IMG/VR virus record: IMGVR_UViG_2695420613_000009
DNA length: 18,889 bases
Source: a virus
Taxonomy: Duplodnaviria; Heunggongvirae; Uroviricota; Caudoviricetes
Strand: one strand, 5' to 3'
Position numbers: made by a program. Shown piece after piece: positions 9,001-18,889 of this stretch; the stretch's first letter is position 1; each line of letters starts with the position of its first letter.

Positions 9001-12000
9001 GGACAAAACGATAAAAGAGGCCAGGATTGGCAGTATCGTACCAGCGCAGCAGGAAGGGTACGTACTTATTGGCCTTGATCTCACATACAGCGATGGCTCC
9101 ACCGCGCATAAACCTGTAACAGAATACGGCAGTGCGCACCCTGATGATCAAACCGTGCTGGCGATACCCGTTGATAAGGCTATCGCTCAGGTCAGGGATC
9201 GCAGCAAATTTGCAGAGATATCGAAAAATTATGGTTATTTTATGCCGAAGCAGCAGGGACTTTCTCTGAAAGAGCTTCAGAAGGGGGCCAGCAACGTAGC
9301 GGCGGACGCGATCAAGAATGGCGGTAATGCTCAGGCTGCGGTGGATGAATATTATGCTGCGACTGGTTCACAACCGCATCAACAGAAAATTCAGCAACAA
9401 AAACTTCAGCAACAGGTTATCAACTGGGCGGGAGATGATCCTGATAAGCTGTCATTTGCCAGAAATGTAGCGGCCCGTCAGCCTGAAATGCTGGAACCTC
9501 AGAATCAGAAATTGCTGGAGAACGGGTATGCGAATTTTCTCCGTATTCAAAAGGCCAGGGGGGAACAGGCCAGAGATGAAAGTGCTTCATCTGCATCTCA
9601 GTTTATCCGTGGACTGAAACAGAATTACGCCCAGTAATTCACGATATTCCATTAATACCATTTCCTGATGCCCGGCCATTGTGCCGGGTTTTTTTATGGA
9701 GTCTGTATGGCCTATTCAGAGGAACAGCGTCCTGAGGCGCAACTCGGTAACCAGAATCGTAACAGCCTGAACATTCAGCAACCCGGCGAAACTGACAGCT
9801 ATGAAGCATTTTTCTCTGATCCGAATCGCTGGAAGGATAACAGTACGTCGTTCAGCCTGGGCGATGTATTGCCAACAATGGGTAAAGGTTTCGCCCAGTC
9901 CGTCCGGGGAACAGGGGAAATGGCCCGTGGACTCGGTGATGCGATGATTCAGAGCCCGGTAAAAACAGGGGCGCGTATTTTAAATGAGTTCAGCCGTATG
10001 GGGCTGCCGGGTGTCGCAACTGTGCAGGATATTTTTGCCGGTGGCAGCAGGGGGGCTGATGAGGTCATCGATACCCTGCCTGATGGCAAAAACGCGGTTA
10101 CTGATACTGTCGGTAAAGGTCTGAAGGCAACCGGTAAGGCTGTCAGTGATGGTGCCAAAGCCACTGATGAATGGCTGACCGGTAAGATGTCGCCGGGTGC
10201 AGTTCGTGCGCTGAATACGCCGATGACCGAAGGCTATAATGATTCTGCGGTCTGGGTGGCGAAGGGTGTAAACCTGATTGGTGCGCTTGTACCTGATATG
10301 GTTGCTGGCGGTGTGGCTAGAAAGGTGGGTGATGTCACACTGCGAAAAATGCTGACCGCCGGGCTGGAGAAAAAATACATCGCGGCAGGGATGCAGCCGG
10401 AAAGAGCCACGGCACTGGCAGCAGAAGCTGTCGATAAAAAAATGCCGGATTTATTCCAGGCGGGCCTGATCACCCATTCCACTGTAAGTGCACAGGGGCA
10501 GAGTGCAATGGCGGCAGCAGATGCTGTTCTTAATGCTGATTACTCTGAGCTGGCGCAGTCACCGAAATTTCAGCAGACGTTTTTGTCCATTGACGCCGAC
10601 CCGCAGCACGCACAGCTTACTGATCGCCAGAAAATGGATCTGGCAAAAGAGCGTGTTGCCGATGAGGTGCGCGCGCAGCTGGCAACCGATCCTGAATTGC
10701 TGGCTGTGAATGCCATGGCGGCAAAACTGGGTGACGCACAACTGTTTAATCTGGTGACACGAGGCACAGCGAAGACCGTTAAAAGCGGCATTGTCAGAAA
10801 TGCCACGGAACAGGGGGCGATTAATGCGGCGCAGGGCGGCTATTCACGCTATCAGGAAAACACGGCATTGCGTGAGACCGCCGGAATGGGTGTGTCACCG
10901 TGGGAGGGCGTGGCTGACGCAACGATCGAAGGTGCAGCCTTTGGTGCTGCGATGGGGGCTCCATTCGGTGCGGTTGCCGGATATCGTGGCAGACGTCAGG
11001 CCGCAGAAGAAACCGCCATGCGTGATGCTGAAACCGTGCAGCAGGACGACGCAGCCCCGCAACCAGAATCTGTTGATCCGGTGGCGCAGCAGCGTGAATC
11101 CATGCAGGGCATGAATCGCGAGCAGCTTCTGGAGCAGTATGCTGATGCGGATATGGCAACAGAGGGTGACGCATCCGCAGCTCATCGCCGGGAAGCTGCC
11201 AGCCAGTTGTTGAATGAACTGGACGAACAGACGAAGCGACAGGCTGTGATGAATGAGCTGAAGGCGAAGCCGCGTTCTGAACTGCTTGAGGAATACCGCA
11301 GACTCAGCCAGAAAGAGGGGCGCACCGAGACTGAAGAACAACAGTTTCAGGCAATACGAGAAGTCATTCGCCCACAACAGGAAGTGACGCCGGAAGCACA
11401 GTCACAGCCTGAAAATGCGGAGGATGGTAACGGGAGCATTTACCCGACGGTGCGGTTCCGGGACCCGAATGAAGTCCGCATTGAAATTAACGGGAATGGT
11501 GCGTCCAGACCAGCGGAACGCATTGAGAAGGTGCGCCCGGACAACCGTTATTTCACGGATGAGAAAAGCGCCATGGGGAGTGATGTTTTCCGTAATGCCG
11601 CCGCCACCGGCCTGAAACCGTCCGTAGTGAAGAAAGGCGAGAATCAGTATGCCGTTGAAATGGATAATCCTGCGTTCTCTGAAGATGTGGCAACGGAAAC
11701 CATTAACACCCTGGCTGACGGAGAGCGTATTGCTGATGCTGACCCGATGGAGCAGCCCGCGTTCATGCGTGACCCGCGATTCCGTGGTTTCACGGGGGAT
11801 GATACGGAGGTACAGGCCCGCCTTGCCCGTGGCAACGCGCCGACGGCAGAGGAGCTTGTACGTTCACAGATGGCTGAAGGTGATGCCGGTCCGACAGCAC
11901 AGGAGTTAACTGAGCGTCCACGCCTGCCCGCTCCCGGCGATATTCATCCCGGACAGGGATATCCGTTACCGGGAGAAGTGGCGCGTACGCCGGATGAAAA

Positions 12001-18000: not shown

Positions 18001-18889
18001 GGCGATGGTGAAATCGGTAGAGCGGGATATGAAAATTGCCGTGGATCGGTTTAACCGCGAGTACAACAAAAAAGTGGGAGTGGATTAACAGAAATGGCCC
18101 CGTACGGAAGTGCGGGGCTGATTAAGAAATAAACACTCATTGACCTGTAATAACCGGAGCTATTAACATATAGTCAGAAGAGCATTTCATGTGATACAGA
18201 GAGCCGATTTATGTTTAATGAAGAAAAAGTTGCGCAAATGGCAGCGTATTTGCTGAAAAAGCATGGCGGATCTATGCGTTTCATTAAGCTGAAGCAGCAA
18301 CGGTAATGGCGAATAGCATTTATGAGCAAAATAATCTTGATATGTTATTAGGCGATCTGATGTAACCGGGATGATGTTCACCCCTTATCGCCGGGGAACA
18401 ATACCGGCAATCAGAATTGCGGATGGAACTATTCAGGCCCACGATGATATCGATGAGGAGTTTTTTCAGCCAGTATTGGATGGCTTTCTTATATCCAAAT
18501 ATACGCCATTTGACATCCTCCACGCCCTGAAGGACGGGGTTTTACAGCGCACCGGATAAGATTCGGTGTTTTGTTGAAAAATACTGTGATAACAAACAGA
18601 AAACCCGTCAGTAAGACGGGCTTAGCAAGCTGGGACGGTTACTTTAATAATTTCAGTGCCTTTACATCCACTTCAACACTGCTCAGGTCTTTATCAATTT
18701 CACCCTCAATTCTTACTTTGTCTTTCGGAGAAACATTCTGACCGGCCCATATGCTGTCATCGATATCCGTGACAATTGTCCCGCTATTGTCACGAAACTC
18801 ATAACGTTCATCACCCACTTTTTTAACGATGCTCCCTTCAAGGATAACCCATGCATCATCCTTCAGTTCTTTTGCCTGCGCTACTGTTG

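Follow-up and report, generated by a model that had tools for sequence, protein, structure and literature searches.

What does a short-tailed Shiga toxin (Stx) phage do with a single gene of 8.4 kb? The question is raised by an 18,889-nucleotide (nt) stretch of Caudoviricetes DNA (IMG/VR record IMGVR_UViG_2695420613_000009, hereafter the window) that is 100% identical to the Stx2 phage Sp5/VT2-Sakai and in which a giant open reading frame (ORF) encodes 2,793 amino acids (aa). An earlier note, made from the sequence alone, had proposed a large multidomain protein with two HExxH metallopeptidase-like motifs that is packaged and injected with the DNA, possibly to counter host defences. Our analysis supported this interpretation, yet its core was already published, since earlier publications had described the gene, shown it to be essential, associated its product with the virion and placed it among the polyvalent proteins (PMC5512222; bioRxiv 10.64898/2026.04.10.717836). 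Our additions are incremental: two cryptic zincin domains, corrections to the MuF-C and AAA+ annotations, a widespread constant module and a cysteine-free, ejectosome-like block of genes. We conclude that the giant protein of short-tailed Stx phages is probably a polyvalent one, carried inside the virion and ejected with enzyme-like cargo.

ORF calling recovered a single open frame (9668-18088), which would give 2,806 aa when counted from its first ATG. This ATG, annotated as the start in GenBank AP000363, falls within a terminator-like hairpin; the ATG at 9707, with a GGAG at 9698-9701 (5 nt before it), is thus the more plausible start, and Mondal et al. (2016; PMC5155283) also take the protein as 2,793 aa. 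The uninterrupted ORF with its own terminator and start was recovered as described in the earlier note. Its placing at the prophage end held in part: the giant gene closes the late structural operon, yet the VT2-Sakai record continues past it with about 4.4 kb of accessory genes. The ORF matches VT2-Sakai orf71 at 100% identity, and 186 Stx-phage records carry it at 90-100% identity. One GenBank record puts 19 small "hypothetical proteins" on the same DNA, as if several genes or a pseudogene mimicked one ORF. Such an annotation artefact is hardly credible in view of 8.4 kb without a stop, of this conservation, and of peptides detected along the whole length and strongest in the top gel slices.

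These peptides come from the Stx phage phi24B, whose orthologue gp47 is 97% identical to the giant. The phi24B preprint (bioRxiv 10.64898/2026.04.10.717836) reports gp47 in purified virions and its absence from the symmetric cryo-EM model. In the proteome table, gp47 has 10,962 peptide-spectrum matches, second after the major capsid protein; gel slices above the 80-kDa portal give its highest counts, and its peptides span from about aa 100 to about aa 2,670. The published proteome thus supplies the virion mass spectrometry that the earlier note had suggested, and agrees with its proposal of a protein packaged with the DNA. Homology to a tail tape-measure or other purely structural protein was not found either: the giant has no tape-measure family match and is absent from the phi24B tail model.

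The genetics had been done in Sp5. The deletion mutant of ORF80 (dORF80) excises and packages its DNA but forms neither plaques nor lysogens, and is complemented in trans (Mondal et al., 2016; PMC5155283). The gene is thus essential on a K-12 host, suggesting a core role in delivery or assembly and not merely an anti-defence function. Mondal et al. assigned it to tail formation, on the grounds that the mutant heads were not labelled by anti-fibre antibody, and suggested an AAA+ ATPase (COG1483). Accordingly, the giant could mainly be a factor of tail assembly or head completion, a portal scaffold or plug for the adaptors, nozzle and fibres, with enzyme-like domains that are vestigial or irrelevant to infection. 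The location of the gene within the structural operon and the DNA-filled dORF80 heads, which bind no anti-tail-fibre antibody, speak for this role. We nevertheless consider it quite unlikely, as the phi24B cryo-EM structure explains all tail components without gp47, catalytic-type residues are invariant at about 30% identity, including in standalone versions from non-phage mobile elements, and, if an internal protein were lost, any effect on tail stability could only be indirect. As for the AAA+ label, no Walker A motif ([GA]xxxxGK[ST]) is found in the 2,793 aa and no AAA family of Pfam matches, which leaves the proposed energy-requiring role unsupported.

The domain content places the giant among the large polyvalent proteins defined by Iyer, Burroughs, Anand, de Souza and Aravind (2017; PMC5512222). 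Four Pfam domains were matched above the gathering cut-offs, LPD38 (7.6e-48), LPD5 (6.5e-45), LPD1 (1e-23) and MuF_C (1.3e-17). Like the members of this class, the giant combines several zincin-like metallopeptidase (MPTase) domains with others, is encoded in a late virion locus and is virion-associated, as phi24B gp47 attests. It departs from them in two respects, its MPTase-like domains matching no Pfam peptidase model and the protein being essential, whereas the class has been framed mainly as anti-defence cargo.

The HEWFH and HEIIH motifs that the earlier note had read at 13556-13570 and 14357-14371 lie exactly there (aa 1284-1288 and 1551-1555). Such a pair is not expected by chance: the composition of the protein predicts 0.036 HExxH motifs, and in 20,000 shuffles the probability of at least one was 0.035 and that of at least two 0.0007. 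The first motif lies in a conserved module of about aa 900-1450, for which the AlphaFold2 (AF2) model was confident (predicted local distance difference test, pLDDT, 89; predicted template modelling score, pTM, 0.79). The model has the order expected of a zincin, with a beta-sheet, the HExxH helix and a later Glu-bearing helix. In 68 aligned sequences, H1263, E1265, H1284, E1285, W1286, H1288, D1291, D1362, E1375 and E1382 are invariant. The last three fall within Pfam LPD1, which we therefore take to be the C-terminal, Glu-bearing half of zincin domain 1 and not a separate domain; E1375 and E1382 are candidates for the third zinc ligand, which the earlier note had advised seeking downstream of each motif. 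The phage-type MPTase signature of PMC5512222 has a His ending strand 2 and an Asp three residues past HExxH, and the pattern H1263...H1284-E-x-x-H1288-x-x-D1291 fits it. Anthrax lethal factor, Pro-Pro endopeptidase (PPEP, M34) and MtfA share with domain 1 the predicted fold and the HExxH with a downstream Glu, but domain 1 has in addition the invariant H1263, E1265 and D1291 and a long insert ahead of the Glu helix.

The second motif belongs to a predicted minimal zincin. In the AF2 model of aa 1470-1860 (pLDDT 78), an N-terminal helix, three strands and the HExxH helix follow one another in the canonical order. Conservation is 96-100% at H1551, E1552 and H1555 and 85% at E1607 (in the sequence GEFLAHMAE), which is the conserved downstream Glu of this domain. 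Fewer homologues reach this site than site 1 and many of them have one residue more (HExxxH), a spacing variant also reported in PMC5512222. The predicted fold and the HExxH with its downstream Glu are shared with the minimal zincins SprT-Spartan, Wss1, TTHA0227 and projannalysin. At both sites, the H-E-H and downstream Glu are kept in homologues down to about 20-30% identity; in structural alignments to known zincins, the sequence identity of the two domains is just 8-17%.

With the whole protein and ten overlapping tiles (hmmscan, E<=10), no Pfam peptidase family was found at either HExxH site; no match to such families, MPTase-PolyVal and SprT-like included, exceeded the gathering threshold, and the sole peptidase match was a sub-threshold one, Peptidase_M76 at site 2 (E=0.16, 12 bits). 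Searches of PDB sequences by phmmer and profile hmmsearch (whole protein; profiles of region 1, region 2 and the C-terminal module) returned no match. The tile-wise check suggested in the earlier note found no Pfam peptidase, but zincin-like folds, not non-peptidase ones, are predicted at both sites, in agreement with the SprT/zincin-like contexts that it had proposed. We conclude that the HExxH sites lie in previously unannotated, predicted zincin folds with conserved catalytic residues, whose catalysis is putative.

A third enzyme-like domain, MuF_C, had been called a "MuF-C metallopeptidase" in the phi24B preprint, which also noted LPD5, LPD1 and LPD38 (bioRxiv 10.64898/2026.04.10.717836). 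MuF-C was defined as a PBECR domain by Iyer et al. (PMC5512222). Besides the Pfam match, this part of the AF2 model matched the BECR-fold RNase toxins BrnT (5.6), CdiA-CT (5.3), colicin D (5.0/4.8) and RelE (4.7). [quoted passage not shown] The metallopeptidase label is thus a mislabel, since MuF_C matches the BECR fold and the peptidase-like domains are the HExxH regions. The authors of the preprint viewed gp47 as an ejection protein that breaches the cell wall, its metallopeptidase cutting peptidoglycan cross-links so that gp47, once ejected, could build a conduit to the inner membrane. That the virion protein carries two predicted zincin-fold domains is in line with this proposal, as is the lytic-transglycosylase-like domain at the N-terminus of gp69 of phage JC1, which indicates that the wall is encountered by members of this class; we rate this wall-breaching role as unlikely.

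Around this cargo, the giant is modular, with a lineage-specific N-terminus of about 900 aa, a block formed by LPD5, zincin 1, zincin 2 and PBECR, and a constant C-terminus of about 900 aa. The first 440 aa are common only to the giants of Stx phages and of some Vibrio phages. The following segment (aa 441-899) has no detectable homologues beyond close relatives and is probably disordered; its acidic composition bears out a charged region noted earlier. Gly/Ala-rich hydrophobic segments are present as the earlier note had reported, but they are only moderately hydrophobic: the Kyte-Doolittle maximum is 1.14 at aa 402-425, with sub-threshold Gly-zipper Pfam matches, and 1.22 at aa 2442-2469 and 2515-2551. 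Classical transmembrane helices were not found in the giant, in which one 19-residue window alone attains 1.38. Between Sp5 and phi24B, aa 1001-1600 are 100% identical, the N-terminal 400 aa 93-95% and aa 1801-2000 89%, so that divergence appears concentrated at the N-terminus and at the junction ahead of the constant module.

An exhaustive HMMER search with aa 1843-2793 recovered 8,528 cluster representatives of the constant-module family at E<=1e-3, including 4,762 at E<=1e-30. The match always reaches the extreme C-terminus, in proteins of 1,000-5,181 aa. When 150 relatives were mapped on the giant, 149 covered aa ~1890-2793, about one third had zincin 2, about one fifth LPD5, zincin 1 and LPD1, fewer than one tenth MuF_C, and almost none the N-terminal 900 aa. 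ART-PolyVal, PBECR5 and MuF_C are other cargoes in these relatives. Cultured phages with the module (335 records) nearly all have genomes of about 55-66 kb and include Stx phages, about 100 Vibrio, 31 Ralstonia and 10 Burkholderia phages; one weak, partial match was to a 40-kb Bacillus phage. P1 is absent from them, and the breakdown leaves only about seven other records, of low identity.

Close parallels are the "DarB-like" giants of Bcep22-like, Ralstonia and Vibrio podophages, which share the constant LPD38 module, are encoded by the last gene of the morphogenesis module and occur in virions. The phages that encode them also have portal, capsid and head-closure genes with homology to the 933W ones. 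JC1 gp69 (4,515 aa, Bcep22-like; PMC9144972) likewise carries LPD38 close to the C-terminus, is encoded at the equivalent genomic position and occurs in the virion. Its cargo differs, consisting of a lytic transglycosylase-like lysozyme, a methylase, an SNF2-type helicase and LPD3 where the Stx giant has LPD5, two zincins and PBECR. The giant itself has no methylase or helicase Pfam match of the P1 DarB type, and its "DarB-like" PHROG match covers only aa 2351-2681, the LPD38 region.

These labels bear on a further possibility, that the giant is purely an anti-defence carrier like P1 DarB or T4 IPI, dispensable on hosts free of defence systems and required only where restriction, CRISPR or the like has to be overcome. 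Such a function would be in keeping with the polyvalent-protein framework (PMC5512222), with swappable cargo including ADP-ribosyltransferases and nucleases, and with the relatives labelled "DarB-like antirestriction". It appears very improbable to us, because phages lacking the gene form neither plaques nor lysogens unless it is supplied in trans, and because in the E. coli phage PTXU04 a 2,198-aa giant with LPD38 as its sole confident annotation (PTXU04_00025) is also critical for infection. Moreover, the "DarB-like" label derives from helicase and methylase cargo that the Stx giant lacks, and P1 is not among the phages with the constant module.

Outside this family, an analogue is the N4 virion RNA polymerase (gp50, 3,500 aa), likewise a giant in a T=9 capsid, whose gene ends the structural operon and is preceded by those of small internal virion proteins; the N4 order gp52, gp51, then gp50 follows the same logic as the Stx-phage block. 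N4 gp50 has an HExxH MPTase domain according to PMC5512222, and the Stx giant has no RNA polymerase module. Homology between the two was not supported, BLASTP being non-significant and the hhalign probability being 0.6% with the C-terminal module and, when zincin 2 was aligned to the N4 MPTase region, 3%; only a faint PHROG match (E 0.006) was obtained. In T7 (gp14, gp15 and gp16) and P22 (gp7, gp16 and gp20), the head stores proteins that leave by way of the tail and make or support a conduit across the envelope. The same working principle is proposed for the giant, a role that the phi24B preprint had suggested for gp47; no homology to these ejection proteins was detected and, unlike them, it is one 308-kDa chain bearing enzyme-like cargo.

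The LPD5-zincin-LPD1 module also exists as standalone proteins of 480-880 aa in Bacteroides, Rhodobacterales and others, the genes lying in accessory regions of mobile elements. The Bacteroides one, listed in 172 index blocks, lies in an extended series of small genes, all on one strand, that includes RadC and DUF3310, and a Gemmobacter one stands beside H-NS, PcfJ, an SNF2-type giant and the Tn7-like transposition genes tniQ and tniB.

The genes just upstream fit an internal virion protein as well. The four coupled genes that the earlier note took for internal virion proteins do exist, and their phi24B orthologues (gp51, gp50, an 86-aa product and gp48) were detected in virions, the 86-aa product weakly, and are absent from the cryo-EM model; their products are candidates for co-ejected internal proteins. 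The 421-aa one corresponds to Sp5 ORF79, which is essential as well (PMC5155283). From 6995 to 18088, these four genes and the giant form five consecutive genes encoding 3,663 residues and not one cysteine. Elsewhere in the window, the needle (3061-4329) is cysteine-free too, and the counts are 8 for the nozzle and 2-4 for the lom and membrane-protein morons. The cysteine-free stretch may mark proteins that pass unfolded through the tail channel and periplasm. The 83-aa product (8110-8361) has sub-threshold Gly-zipper_YMGG and Bacteriocin_IIc Pfam matches and shares glycine-zipper-like segments with the giant; it could be a small membrane-active internal protein. In the phi24B preprint, a "homolog of a bacteriocin" was dismissed as contamination; the orthologue of the 83-aa product is an unconfirmed candidate for the same protein.

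Taken together, these data would be consistent with the following scenario. The giant would be made late and loaded in the head in multiple copies, with the small cysteine-free proteins encoded just upstream. Upon release of the tail needle at the receptor, all of them would exit through the tail before or with the DNA, and, being cysteine-free, they would be suited to crossing the channel and the oxidising periplasm in unfolded form. The constant C-terminal module would provide the essential function, head incorporation and/or a trans-envelope conduit, while the variable cargo would act on arrival: the zincins would most likely cut the polyprotein itself, releasing modules, or host proteins, and the PBECR domain may act on RNA.

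It is possible, if somewhat doubtful, that this extends to a whole lineage, the constant module being the essential delivery platform of podophages with T=9 capsids and genomes of about 60 kb, the N-terminal cargo swappable, the zincins release proteases and the cysteine-free block of five genes a complete Stx-phage ejectosome. Equally tentatively, the module might anchor the giant in the head and build or traverse a trans-envelope channel, its cargo of zincins, ADP-ribosyltransferases, nucleases and methylase-helicases resembling that of polymorphic toxins.

Several points weigh against our interpretation. The main unexplained one is that loss of an internal protein should leave heads with no detectable fibres; the unlabelled dORF80 heads are explained by a role in assembly no less well than by one in delivery. 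Foldseek found no significant match with the region 2 model. The gp47 counts that trail into lower gel slices may reflect degradation during storage and not processing. The role proposed for the constant module is deduced only from how conserved it is and from whole proteins being essential. Finally, ejection into the cell and autoprocessing or host-protein cleavage by the zincins are what we infer, as is an anti-defence role, and zinc binding is predicted. All the same, assembly factor, peptidoglycan peptidase, anti-defence carrier and artefact are each less well supported than a packaged ejection protein. The features of the locus are collected in Table 1.

Table 1. Coordinates of the giant gene, its domains and its flanking features in the window.
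Feature	Position (nt)	Strand	Description
Four translationally coupled genes	6995-7651, 7654-8100, 8110-8361, 8372-9637	+	218, 148, 83 and 421 aa; cysteine-free
Terminator-like hairpin and T-run	9670-9695	+	7-bp stem (6 GC pairs) at 9670-9689, then TTTTTTT; abuts the 5' side of the giant gene
Giant ORF	9707-18088	+	2,793 aa, 308.3 kDa, pI 8.5, no cysteine; Sp5 ORF80 = ECs1242 = VT2-Sakai orf71
N-terminal region, aa 1-440	9707-11026	+	Moderately hydrophobic Gly/Ala-rich segments; glycine-zipper-like aa 402-433 (nt 10910-11005)
Acidic Pro/Gln-rich low-complexity linker, aa 441-899	11027-12403	+	83 D+E, 55 K+R, 39 P and 36 Q in 459 aa
Helical subdomain and LPD5 (Pfam LPD5 aa 1051-1200)	12404-13306	+	Opens the conserved module LPD5-zincin-LPD1
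Zincin-like domain 1, aa ~1195-1450	13289-14056	+	HEWFH at nt 13556-13570; Pfam LPD1 aa 1361-1440, nt 13787-14026
Zincin-like domain 2, aa ~1477-1666	14135-14704	+	Minimal zincin; HEIIH(H) at nt 14357-14371(74)
MuF_C domain, aa 1750-1839	14954-15223	+	PBECR (BECR fold, predicted RNase-type), no metallopeptidase
Constant C-terminal module, aa ~1887-2788	15365-18070	+	LPD38 aa 2476-2681 (nt 17132-17749); Gly-rich hydrophobic segments aa 2442-2551
GC-rich hairpin	18093-18116	+	Just 3' of the stop, at the end of the late structural operon; no clear T-run; no call by the terminator scan

By analogy with the Q biology of lambdoid phages, the hairpin preceding the giant gene would presumably be read through by Q-antiterminated late transcription. 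In the rest of the window, the phi24B cryo-EM assignments identify 1361-3064 (567 aa) as the hexameric nozzle, for which the PHROG label "internal virion protein" is misleading, and 3061-4329 (422 aa) as the central needle fibre, related to the C-terminus of lambda J. Between the needle gene and the internal-protein genes lies a low-GC island (4500-6100; GC 0.41-0.44 versus about 0.52 elsewhere) that looks like a moron insertion and carries the genes of a 205-aa membrane-associated protein (4628-5245), whose phi24B orthologue gp54 yielded a few virion peptides, and of lom (5336-6070). A 133-aa ORF (415-816) in a different frame shares about 130 nt with the 3' end of the lateral fibre gene (66-545); a hypothetical frameshift fusion, "Fusion_6159_FS", was included in the phi24B mass spectrometry database, whereas Mondal et al. 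found no slippery site. On the 3' side of the giant there are two small ORFs without family match (18211-18306 and 18371-18559) and, on the minus strand, a gene truncated at the edge of the window (18642-18889) that encodes a BOF protein with a YgiW-like OB-fold (Pfam BOF, 9e-27). There are no tRNA genes within the window.

Short-tailed Stx phages disseminate Shiga toxin genes within E. coli. The giant gene, essential and with a virion-borne product, makes up 14% of their genome. Two published annotations of this protein are corrected here, MuF-C not being a metallopeptidase and the AAA+ ATPase label being unsupported. With two intact-looking, predicted zinc-peptidase domains and a nuclease-fold domain joined to a constant module common to thousands of phages, a "hypothetical protein" is opened to specific point-mutant experiments with the existing trans-complementation system.

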